Positions 3,176 to 45,548 of a stretch of 64,000 nucleotides of DNA are shown here, in pieces. Each line of letters starts with the position of its first letter. Within the stretch, counting starts at the first letter, position 1. Source of the stretch: an uncultured Candidatus Saccharibacteria bacterium (GTDB lineage: Bacteria; Patescibacteriota; Minisyncoccia; Phycocordibacterales; UBA5272); the NCBI GenBank assembly GCA_964546555.1, contig CAZJJX010000002.1:16263-80262 (forward strand), read 5' to 3'. The notes under the pieces are model-generated. The model was not told the DNA's origin, ran no database searches, and worked only from the letters and a program-made list of their open reading frames with translations. A program made the translations under genes and the position numbers.

Positions 3176-3595
3176 ATGAATATACAAGTAAAAAAATTAT
3201 ACAAGGATGCTGTTATGCCCTCTCGTGCACATCATGATGATGCTGGCATAGACCTCTTTGCATACGGTGATTATACTCTACACCCACAGGAAATGGTTAC
3301 AATAAAAACCGGATGCGCCTTTGAAATAGATAAGGGGTATGTTGGCCTTATTTGGGATAAGTCATCGATTGGTGCAAAAGGGATAAAAACACTAGGTGGG
3401 GTAGTTGATGCTGGGTATCGAGGTGAAGTACTTGTCATGCTTCACAATCTTTCAAATGAATTACACACATTTAAACATGGTCATAAAGTCGCCCAGCTCC
3501 TTATTCAAAAAGTTGAGTTTCCTGAAATTGTAGAAGTAGGTGAATTATCTGATTCTATTCGTGGGCAAGGGGGATTTGGGAGTACGGGGAAGTAA
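3176..3595 (+). CDS. dut: dUTP diphosphatase (dUTPase)
   Basis: 'AGIDL', 'GVVDAGYRGEV', 'RGQGGFGSTG' dUTPase motifs; ORF begins at 3140 but the conserved N-terminus starts at M(3176). Confidence 0.85.
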   Translation: MNIQVKKLYKDAVMPSRAHHDDAGIDLFAYGDYTLHPQEMVTIKTGCAFEIDKGYVGLIWDKSSIGAKGIKTLGGVVDAGYRGEVLVMLHNLSNELHTFKHGHKVAQLLIQKVEFPEIVEVGELSDSIRGQGGFGSTGK

Positions 3596-22390: not shown

Positions 22391-22469
22391 TGCAACCGGG
22401 CGAACTTTGTAAACTAAGTTTTAGCCATACGTAGCGCACTAAGATACTTCTGATTATTCAGAAAAGACT

Positions 22470-40130: not shown

Positions 40131-40256
40131 AATGTGATTAAGTATAGCAAGTAATATTGAATAGGGTGGGGATGTTGTCAGGTGGTATATAAGGAAGAAA
40201 GAATTCAAGAAATGAAAAGGGCCACGCAAAGCGTAGCCCTTAGAAAGACAACCAGA

Positions 40257-41030
40257 TTACTTTGTAGTAATTGTTATTGTACTTGTAACAAGATTACCTC
40301 TTGAGTTCAATGTCTGAACGGTGATAACTTTTTCACCTGTAGTCCAGCCTTCTGTCAGTGCGTCAAGATGTTTTATCAGTGATTTTGCATGTTCGTCTGT
40401 CGTGGCAACTTCAGGCAAAGTTGCTTGATGAGGCGTTTCTGCTTCAACTGCATGTTGATTGTCCGCTGCAGTACTGACACTAACACTTTCGATGTTAGGG
40501 ATAAGTTCCTTAGCAAGAATGAGTGCATCATCATAAACAGGTCCGATGCCACGAGTAAGTTCATTGATGCGACTGAAGGTTGCTTTTGTGTTGTTCCTGT
40601 CCTTCCTCTTTTTGTACAATTCAAGAAGTTTAAGAAGGTACTTCCCTTGACGAATAGGGTCAGTTTCTTCTGCAAGACCTTCATTGAGTATCGCTTCTGC
40701 TTGGACATCTCTTCCGTAGGCCAGATAGACGTCGGCTTCTGCAATAGGGTCAACTTCGTGATACGTACCATGTTGCATCGTCTTGTCTGTGGTGTCAGGT
40801 GTTCCAAAGAAACTATCCGGTGACAAACGTGACTCCAGAAAAACAGATTCTGTGTTCATGTTCCGCCGGGTAGGCCGCCTGTAAATAGAGAGACCCATTA
40901 CCATCGCTGCCAGAACAAGAAATGCAACTACTATTGCTTCCACATTTGCACTACCATCCGCTTCTACTTGAGCATAGACAGGGGAACAAGCAATTAAAGT
41001 CGCTAGCAAAAAGAAGAGTGAACGAACCAT
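40257..41030 (-). CDS. membrane protein with FimV/HubP C-terminal-type motif
   Basis: SP/TM N-terminus; 'DPIAEADVYLAYGRDVQAEAILNEGL' matches the FimV C-terminal TPR-like peptide motif. Confidence 0.5.
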   Translation of the reverse strand: MVRSLFFLLATLIACSPVYAQVEADGSANVEAIVVAFLVLAAMVMGLSIYRRPTRRNMNTESVFLESRLSPDSFFGTPDTTDKTMQHGTYHEVDPIAEADVYLAYGRDVQAEAILNEGLAEETDPIRQGKYLLKLLELYKKRKDRNNTKATFSRINELTRGIGPVYDDALILAKELIPNIESVSVSTAADNQHAVEAETPHQATLPEVATTDEHAKSLIKHLDALTEGWTTGEKVITVQTLNSRGNLVTSTITITTK

Positions 41031-41205
41031 TTCGATATCCTTTCAGGATTAGGTTTCTAGGAATATCCGTAAACATCATACAATATAATTTACAAAAAGC
41101 AAGAAATCGTACCTGAATTCGCATTCTAATCGCACAAAGGTTTCAGACTAATTGCACAGGTGTTTTCGGTATATAGCTCATGTATATATCTCATACACAA
41201 ATTGG

Positions 41206-41250
41206 AAAAGAAAAAAGCCCCGAAACGATTAAACGTTTGACGGGGCTACT
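41206..41250 (-). terminator. rho-independent terminator of SPFH operon (minus strand)
   Basis: GCCCCG-tcaaacgtttaatcgttt-CGGGGC then TTTTTTCTTTTCC on minus strand. Confidence 0.65.
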
Positions 41251-41271
41251 TCATCGGCATTGCGCCGATGG

Positions 41272-42480
41272 TTACTTCTTGGTGCCTTGCATGCTCATGT
41301 CGAGCGAAAGGTCCTTTGCCGTCCTCACGGAGAGCATGTCGAGGAGGCCTTGCACACTACTGTGCTGACCGGTGCCCGACTGGCCCATGACGACGCCCGG
41401 AACGAGCGGCTGCTTGGAGTTGGCGAGTGCGTCGGCGTAGAACTTCTGCGCTGCCGTCCATGCTTCCAGCTTCTTTTCGAGCGCGCCGTCGGCTTGCATG
41501 ACCAGACGCTTGCGTTCGGCTTCGCCTTCACCTAGGAGCACTTGCTCGCGCTTGCGCTGCTCGGCGGTCTTGGCTGCCAGCGAAGCGACTTCGAACTCTT
41601 GTTGAGCCTTGGTCACTTCCTTGGCCTTGACCGTCTCTTGCTCCCACTTCGCTTTCGCTGCGGTCGCTTGACCTTCCTTCTCGGCGGTGATCGCCGCTTG
41701 GATGGCCTTCTGAGCATTGGCTTGCGAAACCTGGACTTGCGTCATGGCTGCTTGCCGTTGCTTGATCTGCTCTTGCACGATCGTCGAGTAGTCGAGCTTC
41801 TCGATCGACATGGGTTGCAGCGTGATGCCGAACTGGTCGAGGATCGACCCGTGTTGACGTGAGGCCTTGCCGGTCTTCGGGTCGCGCACGATCTCGGCGG
41901 CCAACACCTTCTCGGGTTGGTTCGTGATCGGGTTCGTGCGTTCGACCTGGTGTGTCACCATCTGGAAGGCGCCATTCTGCGCTTGGTCGTTGATGATGTC
42001 GATCAGCTCGGCCTTGCGTTCGGCAAACGATTCGATTGACGTCATGGTGTTGCCCGACAACTGAATGGCGGTGTTCACCATGCGTGCGACGCCTCGTTCT
42101 TCGATTCCGGACGGCGAACCGAACTGCTTGTGGATCATGACGATCTGCTTGCAGTCGGTTGGCATTTGCCAGTTGACGCTGCCGTACAGCCTTGCTGTGC
42201 CGCCATCGTTGAACTGGAGCGCCTTGCCGGTGTCCATCTTCTCGGTGTGCACGTCGAACAGGTACGAGCCTTGCCGCGGGTACGTCGTCACGGTACCGAG
42301 CCATTGCATCTTGGGGCCAGGTTCGGTGTAGCAGTCGAGGGTGCCGTCGAGCTTCTGGATCACCATCAACTGCTTGGCATCCAGGTTTTCGACAAGCTGT
42401 GGCGTGAGGATCAGGGTGACGAGTGCTGTGATGGCAGCGCAAGCCATCATGACGAGGTTGCGCATCGTGAGTTTTTCCAT
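41272..42480 (-). CDS. SPFH/band-7 (flotillin/YqiK-like) protein, encoded in a GC-rich island
   Basis: N-terminal TM, SPFH core, long Ala/Gln/Glu-rich coiled coil 'QAAMTQVQVSQANAQKAIQAAITAEKEGQ'; local GC ~60-65% vs ~40% background. Confidence 0.75.
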   Translation of the reverse strand: MEKLTMRNLVMMACAAITALVTLILTPQLVENLDAKQLMVIQKLDGTLDCYTEPGPKMQWLGTVTTYPRQGSYLFDVHTEKMDTGKALQFNDGGTARLYGSVNWQMPTDCKQIVMIHKQFGSPSGIEERGVARMVNTAIQLSGNTMTSIESFAERKAELIDIINDQAQNGAFQMVTHQVERTNPITNQPEKVLAAEIVRDPKTGKASRQHGSILDQFGITLQPMSIEKLDYSTIVQEQIKQRQAAMTQVQVSQANAQKAIQAAITAEKEGQATAAKAKWEQETVKAKEVTKAQQEFEVASLAAKTAEQRKREQVLLGEGEAERKRLVMQADGALEKKLEAWTAAQKFYADALANSKQPLVPGVVMGQSGTGQHSSVQGLLDMLSVRTAKDLSLDMSMQGTKK

Positions 42481-42492
42481 TGCGGGATCTCC

Positions 42493-42720
42493 TTAGTTGT
42501 TGCCGTCGTTGCGGCGAGGTTGGTGCTTCTTCACTTGCTTTTCCAGGCCGGCTTCAAGGCTGGCTTGGTTGGCATCGGCGAGTTCCTTCTCCAGCTTCCG
42601 TTGTTTGCGGAAGAAGGGGAAAGTGGGACGCCCCTTGTAGAGCGGCCAGGCGACCTGGGTGATGAACACCAGCAGGACGATGGCCACAAACAGGTACTCC
42701 ATGAGACGATAGAACAGCAT
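42493..42720 (-). CDS. small membrane protein upstream of SPFH gene (NfeD/YqiJ-like position)
   Basis: Single TM 'LFVAIVLLVFITQVAWPLY' + charged tail; same GC-rich island. Confidence 0.45.
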   Translation of the reverse strand: MLFYRLMEYLFVAIVLLVFITQVAWPLYKGRPTFPFFRKQRKLEKELADANQASLEAGLEKQVKKHQPRRNDGNN

Positions 42721-43015
42721 GTCTGGCTCCTCTTAAAAAGGTTGAGTTTGGAAAGGGCTTCTGCTCTTATTGGTTACCCAATTTTGAGACAATTATTATT
42801 ATATAATATAATATATTTGTTTGTCAATAGTGACAAAATAGAAATTTATTGCCTAAAATTAGTAACATTCTTATAAACAACAAGATGTAGTTCTAAAGGA
42901 TTTCTCTAAAATATTATTTGTAAGTCTTTAGCTAGTAACATGGTTTTTGACTTATCAATTTATAAACGATAGGATGATTTTAGGTAGTTTTTTAAAATCG
43001 TAAGGAAAGGTAATT

Positions 43016-43705
43016 ATGAACACAAAAAGGTTTTTTCCAGTAATTCACTGTATTGACCCATTTGAAGAGCAGGGTATTGGTCATGCAATTCATAATACTA
43101 AGATTGCAATGACACATGGTGCTGACGGAGTGTTCCTTATTGGTCATGCGATGAAGTATGGGCCACTATGTGAAATCTATGAACATGTAAGAAAACAGTT
43201 TCCTGAAATATGGATTGGTATCAACTTTCTCGATATTACAGGTTATGATACATGGCACCTGCTAGGCAGTGTTGTTAGACATCAGCGAGGGATCAACGGT
43301 CTCTGGGTAGACATGTTGCCTGATGAGCGAATTGATGTCCCGTCATCAGTTGAGGTGTTTGGCGGTGTTGCCTTCAAATACATAGATCCAAATATTCGAG
43401 GACAAGAACTCAAGGAAGCATGCAACAAGGCTCTAAAGGTGGTTGATGTCGTTACAACAAGTGGAATAAAAACTGGCTCAGCTCCTGATACAGAGAAACT
43501 AGAAGAGATACGAAGAAACATTGGTAACGAAACACAGCTAGCACTTGCAAGTGGGGTTACCGAAGAAAATGTCTCCTTGTTCTTGCCGACTGTGGATACA
43601 TTTTTGGTTGCTTCAAGTATCATTGAACGAAAAAAGAGCCTAGGTAATCATGAGTATCTTATTCCAGAAAAAGTAGCATCACTCGCGCAAAAAATTCATG
43701 CATGA
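43016..43705 (+). CDS. TIM-barrel protein, BtpA/SgcQ-like (tentative)
   Basis: Alternating beta/alpha pattern, 'PVIHCIDP' N-terminal strand; weak. Confidence 0.35.
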   Translation: MNTKRFFPVIHCIDPFEEQGIGHAIHNTKIAMTHGADGVFLIGHAMKYGPLCEIYEHVRKQFPEIWIGINFLDITGYDTWHLLGSVVRHQRGINGLWVDMLPDERIDVPSSVEVFGGVAFKYIDPNIRGQELKEACNKALKVVDVVTTSGIKTGSAPDTEKLEEIRRNIGNETQLALASGVTEENVSLFLPTVDTFLVASSIIERKKSLGNHEYLIPEKVASLAQKIHA

Positions 43706-43716
43706 GTAAGACTTAA

Positions 43717-43760
43717 CTTCACGTAACTATAGAGCATATGGTTACGTGATTTTATTTTTG
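43717..43760 (+). terminator. rho-independent terminator
   Basis: TCACGTAAC-13nt-GTTACGTGA + TTTTATTTTT. Confidence 0.65.
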
Positions 43761-43868
43761 TGACGCCACGGGGTACCGCGGCATCCTACAAAAACATAGT
43801 CGTGAGTACACTTTTTTTATGTAAGGAGTGATACGTCACAAAATGATTACATTTAGAGTATTTTTACT

Positions 43869-44105
43869 TCATAGTAAGTGTTTATATGAAAAAGGATATC
43901 CAGAACTTGACTTAAGATATTTTTCAAATTCGTATGCACGATCTTTGTTAGTAAAAGAGCAGTACCAGACTATTTTATAAACACCATTATTTCTTGTTGT
44001 TTTTGTTTCGCCGTTATTATGTTCTTGTAATCTCTTTTTAAGATCAAATGTGCACCCTATATACTTTTCTTGCCTTTCATTTTTTAAAATGTAGACATAG
44101 TGCAT
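43869..44105 (-). CDS. GIY-YIG nuclease-family small protein (YhbQ/UPF0213-like)
   Basis: 'YVYILKNERQEKYIGCTFDLKKRLQEHNNG' GIY-(x10)-YIG + R...E..N. Confidence 0.65.
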   Translation of the reverse strand: MHYVYILKNERQEKYIGCTFDLKKRLQEHNNGETKTTRNNGVYKIVWYCSFTNKDRAYEFEKYLKSSSGYPFSYKHLL

Positions 44106-44267
44106 ATGATTTAAGTATATTCCACGACGCAAGATTACTTGCTATGAGGGGCACGACCCCACTTCGCGATTACGTTACACGGGGTCCTACCACTTCTTTT
44201 CAATTTTTTATTCATATCTTAAGATATCTAATGAGATTTTCTATACTATGGTGCGCGCACCGCGAAG

Positions 44268-44308
44268 CTCCAAAAAACCACCAAGCATTTCTTGGTGGTT
44301 TTTTTGGA
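44268..44308. terminator. bidirectional terminator downstream of ssrA
   Basis: CCAAAAAA-CCACCAAG-cattt-CTTGGTGG-TTTTTTGG. Confidence 0.6.
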
Positions 44309-44314
44309 GCGAAG

Positions 44315-44711
44315 TGGTGGAGATGGCGAGAATCGAACTCGCGTGTACTAAGGTATGAGGTATGGGTCTACTGTACGTAGTTTGCTTCATGTGTTCGCAT
44401 TCATTATTAAAAGCAAACTAAAGCAATGAATGTATAGCATGAATTATTTCAAGTATAGTGTTATGCAACACTGTGCTCTACATCTACTGTTATATTGCCA
44501 GCAGTCATCCCGTAGATGCGAACGAAAGTGACACCAGATCGGCCAGTAATTTAGGCGAATGCTGGAACTAGTCCGTTTGCCATGTATGGTGAACGGATAG
44601 CCTTACCAGTTGAGTTTGCAACATGGTCTCTCCGGTCTTTTACGAGTTGCGGAGAATTCTCGGTACAGCACATACAACATATTCTTAGTATCGATGCCAA
44701 AGATCATCCCC
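44315..44711 (-). ncRNA. ssrA: tmRNA (SsrA), ~397 nt; predicted tag (A)ANGLVPAFA
   Basis: 3' tRNA-like end 'GCGAG-TTCGATT-CTCGC-CATCTCC-A-CCA' (44315-44343); 5' 'GGGGGATGATCTTTGGCATCGATAC' pairs to give a G3:U70 acceptor stem; internal 'GCA AAC GGA CTA GTT CCA GCA TTC GCC TAA' (44551-44580); smpB 400 bp away. Confidence 0.75.
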
Positions 44712-44842
44712 CTAAAACATCGGTAAACTGATGTTTGGGCGTCCGTTTGCCATGGGCCCTGCAAACGGATTAGCCATAAAACACCAGTAACCAAATGTTC
44801 GGGCGAATTAACCGCCCAAATAATTTTTCAATTTATAAAAAA

Positions 44843-45109
44843 TTATTTGGATTGTTTATTCTTTAGATATTCTTTTTTAATTTTATTTTTGAAATTAGCA
44901 GACCAAAGAGTTTTTAGAAATCTTTCCCTATTAAACACATCTTCTTTTGAAGTAAATTCCTCAGTGTGTATACAAACAAGCGGCTGTCTATTTTTTGTTG
45001 CTGGAACGTGTCCAGAGTTATGCCTCCTTAATCGCTCTACTACATTAGATGTGCATCCTACATATAGCTTTGTATCTTTTTCACTATATAAAATATAAAT
45101 GAAATACAT
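44843..45109 (-). CDS. GIY-YIG nuclease-family small protein (second copy)
   Basis: 'MYFIYILYSEKDTKLYVGCTSNVVERLRRHNSG'. Confidence 0.65.
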   Translation of the reverse strand: MYFIYILYSEKDTKLYVGCTSNVVERLRRHNSGHVPATKNRQPLVCIHTEEFTSKEDVFNRERFLKTLWSANFKNKIKKEYLKNKQSK

Positions 45110-45113
45110 ACCT

Positions 45114-45548
45114 TTAATTACTTTCTCGCAGTTCTCTGCGAGTGATATTTTTTTTGATATCTTCTCGCTTGTCGCGTGCATCTTTCTTTTTACACACCGC
45201 GACCTCAACTTTAATGAGGTTATTTTTACTATACAACGAGTTAGGATGAAGTGTCAATACTTTTGTTTGTTCGAGTCCGTAGAGCTCAGCAATCTCTTTT
45301 TTTTGTAACAATAGTTTGCGGGTGCGGTAGGGGTCATAGTCTTTTGGGGTATTTGCAGCTTGATATGGTGCAATATAGACACCAACAAGAAACGCTTCAC
45401 CTCCACGGATGAGAATTTTCCCACCTTCAAGGTTTGCAAGCTTAGCTCGCACAGCTTTTACTTCAAAACCAAAAAGCTCGATTCCTGCATCATAGGTGTC
45501 GTTTATCACGTAGGTGAGATGGAGTTTTTTGTGTTCAGCTTGTCTCAT
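45114..45548 (-). CDS. smpB: SsrA-binding protein SmpB
   Basis: 'NDTYDAGIELFGFEVKAVRA', 'DPYRTRKLLLQKKEI', C-terminal basic tail. Confidence 0.85.
   Translation of the reverse strand: MRQAEHKKLHLTYVINDTYDAGIELFGFEVKAVRAKLANLEGGKILIRGGEAFLVGVYIAPYQAANTPKDYDPYRTRKLLLQKKEIAELYGLEQTKVLTLHPNSLYSKNNLIKVEVAVCKKKDARDKREDIKKNITRRELRESN

Follow-up and report, generated by a model that had tools for sequence, protein, structure and literature searches.

Two minimal GIY-YIG genes and a covarying hairpin module beside the tmRNA gene of a Patescibacteria bacterium

Introduction

Why do two small genes for predicted GIY-YIG nucleases stand on either side of the transfer-messenger RNA (tmRNA) gene ssrA, and why does a hairpin that resembles a part of this tmRNA precede it? 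The question is raised by 64,000 nucleotides (nt) of contig CAZJJX010000002.1 (positions 16,263 to 80,262; assembly GCA_964546555.1) from an uncultured Candidatus Saccharibacteria bacterium, the whole stretch being called the window in the following. A first-pass annotation, made from the letters alone, had placed ssrA on the minus strand behind smpB, flanked by two YhbQ-like GIY-YIG genes (here GIY1, downstream of ssrA, and GIY2, upstream of it), and had taken the hairpin in the tmRNA leader for a partial duplicate. The reading that we favour, and consider probable, is that an otherwise normal smpB-ssrA locus has been colonised by two independent, homing-like selfish GIY-YIG cassettes that target stable-RNA genes. 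The coordinates of all features are collected in Table 1.

Results and Discussion

Two GIY-YIG subfamilies with fixed positions

The two flanking genes proposed in the first-pass annotation were both borne out (PF01541, E ~1e-15), as their open reading frames (ORFs) score 58.1 and 55.8 bits (cut-off 22.6) and encode single-domain proteins. A Pfam scan of these proteins (78-88 aa) returned the catalytic domain only, with no further domain and no DNA-binding module. The 64 kb window contains no other GIY-YIG ORF; the two share 34% identity, and the core residues Y5, Y15, R25, H29 and E61 are invariant in 12 sequences from both subfamilies. By sequence both belong to the minimal UPF0213 or prokaryotic Slx1-like branch of the GIY-YIG proteins as described in PMC1564403, and a nuclease activity is predicted for them. 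The GIY2 gene follows smpB closely, its ATG lying 4 nt after the smpB stop codon.

Looking for GIY-YIG genes near ssrA in relatives, a check suggested together with the first prediction, proved productive. The profile search covered 80 SmpB-anchored genome loci (±3 kb) and six contigs of closer relatives and gave seven GIY-YIG ORFs, 7/7 of them directly beside the tmRNA gene and on the ssrA strand, four downstream of it (L003, L030, L035, L038) and three between smpB and ssrA (L043, L044, L052). All seven come from Patescibacteria loci, and the cyanobacterial, Bacilli and other non-Patescibacteria SmpB loci yielded none. Homologues of GIY1 (49-78% identity) are located 60-230 nt downstream of the tmRNA in L003, L035, L102-L106 and L116, and those recovered by exact-sequence look-ups (61-78%; L102, L103, L104-106, L116) all follow the tmRNA. 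Homologues of GIY2 (59-83% identity) occur in L111-L117, 2-8 nt after the smpB stop codon and before the tmRNA, those obtained by exact-sequence look-ups showing 68-83%, and those of L044 and L087 also lie between smpB and the tmRNA, at a greater distance from the smpB stop codon. L115 and L116 carry both genes in the same double arrangement as the window. GIY1 and GIY2 are two subfamilies, each with its own fixed position relative to smpB and ssrA, and altogether at least four GIY subfamilies adjoin tmRNA genes. Truncated GIY copies were found in L052 (51 aa), L100 and L101, and scans for defence-system and phage families returned only weak generic GIY-YIG matches.

A third subfamily is present between smpB and ssrA in L043 (935-1230) and L052 (3447-3754), where it is bracketed by inverted repeats of 25-28 nt; the right arm ends in the 5' GGGGG of the tmRNA and the left arm spans the ribosome-binding site and the start codon of the nuclease gene.

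A covarying module in the leader of GIY2-bearing loci

The leaders of the GIY2-bearing ssrA loci are all homologous. Behind the GIY2 stop codon a short G+C hairpin is followed by 1-3 tandem modules and by an A/T-rich hairpin ending in TTTTAG, after which the GGGG of the tmRNA begins. Each module unit is made up of GGCTAA, a stem arm of 9-10 bp, a loop, the second arm and CGCCC(GAACA). In the window, whose leader folds with z = -6.8, the module is nested inside a long hairpin (44716-44799). A second repeated motif that had been noticed in this leader is indeed present, as ATGTTTGGGCG at 44731-41 and ATGTTCGGGCG at 44795-805, and represents the CGCCCRAACAT motif that closes each module unit.

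Among 10 distinct module versions the flanks are invariant, 9/9 stem pairs covary and 95% of the cells are paired. The covariance score was reached by 0/500 shuffles and collapsed in slid controls, and none of the 23 cells with compensatory changes is a G-U pair. R1, a covariance model made from the module versions, matches 8/8 GIY2-bearing ssrA loci and 0 of ~50 GIY2-free ssrA loci. No Rfam 15 family was found for the module of the window with E up to 1. L115, L116 and L117, which are otherwise almost identical, carry one, two and three tandem copies of a 70-nt module unit, a copy-number variation on a very short evolutionary scale.

Two orphan copies were also found with R1, one in L102 (2410-2456) and one in the window itself (Table 1). 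The latter is located 8 nt after the stop codon of a putative rpsR (ribosomal protein S18, plus strand, read by eye) and is followed by a bidirectional terminator-like hairpin, with no GIY-YIG gene nearby. The first leader hairpin of the window, GGGCGGTTAATTCGCCC, recurs with its position and motif in L111, L115-L117 and L113 and gives a weak match to R1. It resembles the T-arm of the clade (GGCGGTTCGATTCCGCCC, L081 and others) and not the window's own T-arm, so that it may be a pseudo-T-arm fragment. In L027 a terminal leader hairpin of the cassette type (GAACAAATTTTAC...GTAAAATTTGTTTTAG, directly before GGGG; 3455-3495) is present without a GIY2 gene and without a module, being either a remnant after loss or a native leader from which the cassette leader derives.

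The GIY1 cassette behind the tmRNA

The loci with a GIY1 gene also share a common order, namely CCA-CTTCGC, a variable terminator hairpin, GCTTCGCGGTGCGCGCAC, an A/T-rich stretch, GAAGTGGTGGACCCCG and the nuclease gene, where GAAGTGGTGGACCCCG corresponds exactly to the tmRNA 3' end and the first trailer bases in reverse complement. The trailer of the window is conserved in L003, L102, L103, L104 and L116, and the same five loci contain an exact GAAGTGGTGGACCC. Of the element upstream of GIY1 in the window, GAAGTGGTAGGA repeats in inverted orientation the tmRNA 3' end together with the first bases of the trailer. Such a copy could form a long-range RNA stem with the pre-tmRNA or act as an inverted repeat at the DNA level. 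No conserved sequence was found 3' of the GIY1 stop codon.

The tmRNA 3' ends of ~40 relatives were compared as well. Most Paceibacterota genes lack an encoded CCA and end in ..ACAA, ..ACAG or ..ACAT, whereas CCA is encoded at 5/6 GIY1-cassette loci. The encoded CCA and the CTTCGC trailer are candidate co-converted markers, found with GIY1 in these 5/6 loci; T-arm variants are not linked to it in this way. The A5:U68 pair and the T-arm variant GCGAG/CTCGC were considered as further markers and discarded, because A5 is widespread in the phylum and the distribution of T-arm variants does not follow that of GIY1.

Two observations may be added on these cassettes. The inverted copy (GAAGTGGTGGA versus TCCACCA-CTTC) stands upstream of the nuclease gene in every one of them (44180-44196 in the window), and in L116 the whole trailer unit is tandemly duplicated.

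Table 1: Features of the tmRNA locus in the window, with the orphan module (positions of the window; R1, covariance model of the leader module)
Feature	Position	Strand	Basis or remark
GIY1-type mini GIY-YIG nuclease gene (predicted), 78 aa	43869..44105	-	PF01541 E 1.1e-15; best PDB match UPF0213 protein 1zg2
Element upstream of GIY1: GAAGTGGTAGGA, then hairpin GGACCCCG...GGGGTC	44155..44196	-	inverted repeat I7
tmRNA trailer: CTTCGC, intrinsic terminator hairpin (44270-44307), then GCTTCGCGGTGCGCGCACC	44250..44314	-	inverted repeats I2, I4
ssrA, one-piece tmRNA, 397 nt	44315..44711	-	RF00023 86.5 bits; 67-87% identity with tmRNAs of relatives
Tag frame GCA...GCC TAA, encoding ANSTGKAIRSPYMANGLVPAFA (22 aa)	44551..44619	-	Infernal resume codon and conservation in relatives
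14-nt stretch in the tag ORF, identical to leader module 44741-44754	44571..44584	-	includes the window-specific codons GCA AAC
Leader module GGCTAA-TCCGTTTGC-loop-GCAAACGGA-CGCCC-AAACA (first taken for a partial duplicate)	44732..44778	-	R1 54.3 bits
First leader hairpin (unit 1) GGGCGG-TTAAT-CGCCC, then CGCCCGAACAT (44795-44805)	44801..44817	-	fold
GIY2-type mini GIY-YIG nuclease gene (predicted), 88 aa	44843..45109	-	PF01541 E 5.8e-15; best PDB match UPF0213 protein 1ywl
smpB (SsrA-binding protein, 144 aa)	45114..45548	-	PF01668 E 1.6e-37
Orphan module GGCTAA-AACTT..AAGTT-CGCCC	22393..22429	-	pattern search; R1 31.7 bits, E 4e-6

Gain and loss between close relatives

Both cassettes have been gained or lost between close relatives. 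In a neighbour-joining tree of SmpB the four states (none, GIY1, GIY2, both) are intermingled: L081 (none) is the sister of the window (both), L001 (none) stands next to L113 (GIY2), L002 (none) next to L111 (GIY2) and L102 (GIY1 only) next to L116 (both). Like L081, L083 and L085 have neither cassette, compared with both in the window. The alignment of L102 with L116, the flanks of which are 88-99% identical, revealed a clean replacement from the smpB stop codon to tmRNA position +1, with a native 96-nt hairpin leader as the spacer in L102 and GIY2 plus modules in L116; no target-site duplication was found at this swap. The interleaved states, the exchanged spacer and the truncated copies together form the pattern that is expected of free-standing homing-type genes spreading by recombination via conserved flanks.

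Relatives beside tRNA genes

When metagenomes were scanned with GIY2-type sequences, 15 loci were obtained, and in 11 of them a transfer RNA (tRNA) gene (Thr, Ser, Pro, Ala, Met, Leu, Gly or Arg) lies ~10-260 nt from the GIY ORF. The remaining four are L087, which is a smpB-GIY2-ssrA locus, L093 with a group I intron nearby, and L098 and L099 with the ORF near the contig end. The relatives on the tRNA side show 32-55% identity. Direct repeats of 20-69 nt with 100% identity, which are partial copies of the adjacent tRNA, stand on both sides of the ORF at 5/8 loci examined, and in L090 and L095 partial tRNA copies adjoin or overlap it. Such repeats point to recent rearrangement of the DNA at stable-RNA genes, the events being recent since some of the flanking repeats are 100% identical.

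The spans with partial tRNA copies (20-158 nt, several of them 100% identical) are 1713-2343 in L092, 1890-2325 in L096, 1891-2279 in L088, 1903-2309 in L091, 1905-2410 in L090 and 1025-1556 in L095. A perfect hairpin, TCCCGAWAGCWWTCGGGA, stands in place of the anticodon arm in the partial copies of L092 and L096, and L092 contains three tandem 5' tRNA halves. In L097, 28 nt after the GIY-YIG ORF, ARAGORN calls a tRNA with the anticodon UUA ('Stop') at 1482-1557. The group I intron of L093 (766-1014) is found ~540 nt from a GIY-YIG fragment.

A homing-like model and its alternatives

These loci show an association with stable-RNA genes, specific positions, gain and loss of the genes and a structured module, from which we infer a model in which empty alleles would be cleaved and the cassettes copied in by recombination. 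The cassettes are most likely free-standing homing-like selfish genes, for which conserved stable-RNA genes would serve as landing sites and homology arms and on whose transcription they would ride. The GIY2 cassette takes the place of the whole native smpB-ssrA spacer, with the nuclease gene directly behind smpB, then the short G+C hairpin and 1-3 tandem modules (GGCTAA-stem-loop-stem-CGCCCGAACA) up to tmRNA position +1. The GIY1 cassette begins at the tmRNA 3' end and consists of CCA-CTTCGC, the terminator, GCTTCGCGGTG, the inverted tmRNA 3'-end copy and the nuclease gene. Cassette-free alleles would presumably be broken by the predicted nuclease, and recombination via the conserved flanks (smpB, ssrA) would then copy the cassette in.

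Several points weigh against this model. Its main weakness is that proteins of 78-88 aa without a DNA-binding domain are unlike the characterised GIY-YIG homing endonucleases; recognition of a DNA structure, as by Slx1, might get round the missing domain, which is a speculative analogy. The nuclease activity, its target and the transcription of the cassettes are predictions from the letters. The relatives were sampled by similarity searches, among the matches listed, and are no census. GIY identity roughly parallels that of SmpB, so that much of the patchiness may go back to vertical descent and repeated loss. A clear co-conversion tract was not seen, neither the T-arm variant nor the A5:U68 pair being consistently tied to the cassettes, and a scan of viral contigs gave no GIY relatives. 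Finally, a 14-nt identity between leader and tag (P ~0.001) has to be explained indirectly.

This identity is the starting point of the explanation given in the first-pass annotation, according to which the leader hairpin is a partial duplicate of the tag/resume region of the tmRNA, left behind as an integration scar or serving as a regulatory decoy or antisense partner of the tag region. The repeat as such is real, as CATGGCAAACGGAC is present 14/14 nt at 44571-44584 (tag) and at 44741-44754 (leader), within the hairpin core that had been marked as a second copy (44741-44775). The similarity extends over 38 nt, a leader-tmRNA match of at least 14 nt arose in 2/3000 dinucleotide shuffles, the leader hairpin has a 5' arm that complements the tag region at 12/13 positions (inverted repeat I8), and GIY cassettes next to tRNA genes do contain partial duplicates of the RNA gene concerned. 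That the hairpin was copied from the tag did not hold up, since L113 has a module identical to that of the window (CCCATGGCAAACGGACGCCC), yet its tag region reads ATGGCGTTTGGATAC, and since the similarity between leader and local tmRNA is not significant in five other loci (P 0.27-0.99 in L113, L114, L115, L111 and L044). The modules with other stems (L044, L087, L111, L114-L117) likewise have no significant match to the local tmRNA. The supposed duplicate is best identified as the last module unit of the GIY2 cassette, a conserved and covarying element that travels with the GIY2 gene in at least 8 other loci. Its flanks GGCTAA and CGCCC are module constants, the GGCTA shared with the tag being one of them, and the likeness of its 5' arm to the tag follows from the fact that this arm has to match the 3' arm; in this clade the tag region, for its part, already reads ATGGC-NNN-CGGA. 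The 14/14 identity, which is peculiar to this genome and runs through its own codons GCA AAC, would then go back to an existing resemblance to which 1-3 substitutions were added by chance, or to a short conversion patch passed to the tag from the module, 170 nt upstream. Modules that mimic the local tag/resume region in every genome were considered too and rejected, as the resemblance in L044 (GGCTAAAA-ACAT) and other loci is not significant. Moreover, the hairpin thought to be duplicated sits, according to the alignment of relatives, within the tag reading frame and not at the resume site. No integrase is found among the ORFs between 40.2 and 44.1 kb (GIY-YIG, BtpA-like, SPFH and unknowns) and no second copy of the ssrA 3' 20-mer, even with 3 mismatches allowed, so that a classical integrase-borne ssrA island was rejected and a classical integration scar is not supported. 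We therefore regard a scar or decoy as highly improbable.

It is also rather unlikely, in our opinion, that the mini GIY-YIG proteins are host factors in stable-RNA biology, taking part in processing, quality control or repair of tRNA/tmRNA genes or transcripts, with the modules as promoter, terminator or RNase-processing signals of one smpB-nuclease-ssrA transcript. The nuclease genes are strictly oriented like smpB and ssrA and closely packed with them, down to 2-8 nt behind the smpB stop codon, which would fit such a role, as would the sequence upstream of the GIY1 gene that complements the tmRNA 3' end exactly, the hairpin leader that usually precedes the tmRNAs of relatives too (usually one hairpin per spacer, six spacers read), and the conservation of the GIY proteins, which equals or exceeds that of SmpB. 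A fusion of GIY-YIG with TrmH, for which its authors proposed a role in RNA metabolism, is also known (PMC1564403). However, the closest relatives with the same tmRNA lack the cassettes, which are thus dispensable, the same sites are occupied by several subfamilies and truncated copies exist. The partial tRNA duplications around the genes point to DNA rearrangement rather than to a conserved operon, and the lack of G-U pairs in the 23 compensatory cells of the module stem would be unusual under a constraint on RNA only. Still less probable appears a simple inheritance from an ancestor with both genes beside ssrA, in which random lineage loss left neutral passengers without any targeting. The identities of GIY1 and GIY2 broadly follow those of SmpB and the double arrangement recurs in a second sub-clade, as this explanation would have it, but it leaves aside the four or more GIY subfamilies beside tmRNA genes, the relatives of 32-55% identity beside many different tRNA genes, the flanking repeats that are 100% identical and hence recent, and the sister taxa on the SmpB tree that differ in their cassette state.

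The homing-like reading of the two cassettes might be taken one step further. The mini UPF0213 genes of Patescibacteria, their covarying modules and pseudo-tRNA/tmRNA fragments could together make up an undescribed class of very small mobile cassettes that home to the flanks of tRNA and tmRNA genes by means of a catalytic-domain-only nuclease, which would read a structure in the DNA, namely hairpins or cruciforms formed by the RNA gene or the module, and not a long sequence. We put this forward as a tentative idea that is more doubtful than the model itself. If it were true, it would provide the first concrete role for the widespread UPF0213 family and would help to explain the high variability of tRNA/tmRNA gene flanks in these reduced genomes.

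Comparison with known systems

GIY-YIG homing genes beside stable RNA have precedents. Free-standing GIY-YIG homing endonuclease genes are found in T4-like phages, above all SegB in the tRNA gene cluster (PMC13096335). In common with these, the genes analysed here lie between conserved genes and next to tRNA-type genes, are present or absent in close relatives and are exchanged as a whole intergenic allele through conserved flanks. Seg proteins comprise ~200 aa or more and have a DNA-binding domain, in contrast to the 78-88 aa, the catalytic domain only and the UPF0213/Slx1-like affiliation of the proteins found here, for which cleavage is presumed. Furthermore, the present genes reside in a cellular genome and not in a phage, and a covarying hairpin module accompanies the cassettes.

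Also already known are the GIY-YIG-encoding insertion sequences in rRNA genes of bacteria of the Candidate Phyla Radiation (CPR), which are elements but not introns (PMC11270868). They belong to the same phylum and share with our cassettes the link of GIY-YIG genes to stable-RNA genes and the non-intron nature, but they are inserted inside the rRNA genes, whereas the cassettes are located just outside the tmRNA or tRNA genes and leave the mature RNA intact. The text of PMC11270868 contains 0 occurrences of tRNA; tmRNA was not searched for in it.

Two further kinds of elements invite comparison with the locus. Integrase-borne genomic islands use the 3' ends of ssrA or tRNA genes as targets, and the window resembles such islands in the variable ~4 kb of atypical G+C directly downstream of ssrA that is absent in relatives, as do the tRNA-adjacent cassettes in being flanked by partial tRNA copies. 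The difference lies in the missing integrase, the missing direct repeat of the ssrA 3' end and the size of the cassettes of only ~0.3-0.5 kb. Repetitive extragenic palindromic (REP) elements are dispersed palindromic repeats linked to RAYT (HUH/Y1) transposases. The leader module is likewise a short palindromic element with conserved flanks, a covarying stem, tandem and orphan copies and a linked small nuclease gene. Here the linked gene is of the GIY-YIG and not of the HUH/Y1 type, there are 2 module copies in 64 kb and most copies stand in a single leader.

In the open-access literature we found no description of minimal UPF0213-type genes that systematically flank tmRNA and tRNA genes and none of the GGCTAA-hairpin-CGCCC module. 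While the tmRNA is routine, the more useful result concerns the minimal GIY-YIG proteins (UPF0213/Slx1-like), which are widespread and to which no function has been assigned. Those of Patescibacteria are linked to tRNA and tmRNA genes at fixed positions, with signs of recent gain and loss and a structured, covarying companion element, which makes their genes a testable candidate for a new kind of selfish element targeting stable-RNA genes.

The tmRNA gene and its tag

The tmRNA gene between the two cassettes is an ordinary smpB-ssrA trans-translation gene of a Paceibacterota (Patescibacteria/CPR) bacterium. The Infernal search with Rfam family RF00023 gave a full-length match (model positions 1-374 of 374, gathering score 47) that coincides exactly with the gene assembled by hand in the first-pass annotation, and the tRNA-like 3' end described there was found in all its parts: 5' GGGGATG pairs with 3' CATCTCC to give G3:U70 (alanine identity), the T-arm is GCGAG-TTCGATT-CTCGC and ACCA (discriminator A plus CCA) is encoded in the gene. 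Apart from the tmRNA, only one tRNA exceeded the Rfam gathering score in the 64-kb window. Of the two finders that had been recommended as a check, Infernal agreed and ARAGORN reported no tmRNA in the window. ARAGORN also made no tmRNA call in L081, L001, L002, L003 and L027 and mis-tagged L083 (an implausible ADVGCSVA at position 220), and Rfam detects the tmRNA in all these loci as well as in the window. As several close relatives are likewise missed or mis-called, the miss reflects a weakness of the finder for this clade, and we rejected it as evidence against the gene; it is an annotation pitfall for CPR genomes. Compared with the one-piece bacterial tmRNA and SmpB of E. coli (RF00023; ssrA/smpB), the likeness comprises the full covariance-model match, G3:U70, the T-arm, a GCA resume codon after the pseudoknot PK1, a hydrophobic tag end with a TAA stop codon and the adjacent smpB. 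The differences are a longer tag (22 aa) with an internal hairpin that Infernal treats as an insertion, the failure of ARAGORN, and the nuclease gene and hairpin modules that separate smpB from ssrA. In L085 (3592-3690) the 5' end of the tmRNA seems to be duplicated over 50 nt, which was dismissed as a scaffolding or assembly artefact, the copies flanking a run of N.

For the tag, ANGLVPAFA had been proposed, starting at GCA 44580. Its reading frame and stop codon were upheld by the comparison with relatives' tmRNAs, which had also been suggested as a check, and the start has to be moved upstream, ANGLVPAFA being the last nine residues of a 22-aa tag. Infernal places the resume codon on the first GCAAAC (44619), with the hairpin after it as an insertion relative to the consensus; the tag codons run from 44619 to 44554 and the TAA stop codon occupies 44553-44551. 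In an alignment of the window tmRNA with 7 relatives the block CCATGTTGCAAA is invariant in all 8 sequences, and the frame from the invariant GCA is open to the same TAA in 8/8, with a single indel of 3 nt and many synonymous differences. The ARAGORN tags of the more distant relatives L007 (ANKTAQKAKSIVSPYFEGNFAFAHA) and L018 (ANLSQKAKAILSPYAPALALA) begin at an equivalent position and have an SPY motif in common. Because of this conserved frame from the earlier GCA and the homologous tags in L007 and L018, we assign ANSTGKAIRSPYMANGLVPAFA as the tag. The second GCAAAC of the tag is found in the window only, relatives having GCGTTC, GCACAC or GCAGGG at the same position. The long tag of the clade is one of the few useful points on an otherwise routine tmRNA.

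Gene neighbourhood

The homologues of smpB bear the name SsrA-binding protein in Paceibacterota and Patescibacteria, and the SmpB homologues and recovered genome loci belong to metagenome-assembled genomes of Paceibacterota/Patescibacteria. As first annotated, smpB is located ~400 bp upstream of ssrA on the same strand, the exact spacer being 402 nt; spacers without an intervening gene measure ~2-230 nt. The tmRNA comes directly after smpB in the 38 relatives scanned with Rfam, and the gene order common to relatives is tRNA-Ile, ftsH, smpB, ssrA, DUF1295, infC, rpmI and rplT.

In the window ssrA and DUF1295 are ~4.1 kb apart, compared with ~0.4-1 kb in the closest relatives, and the ~4 kb of DNA between ssrA/GIY1 and DUF1295 (40230-43868) are absent in relatives. 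This extra DNA could have been acquired horizontally or could be an assembly chimera. It contains a BtpA-like gene, a 75-aa ORF, an SPFH/Band-7 protein and an unknown protein of 257 aa, and its G+C content at 41.0-42.9 kb is 49-54%, compared with ~39% elsewhere.

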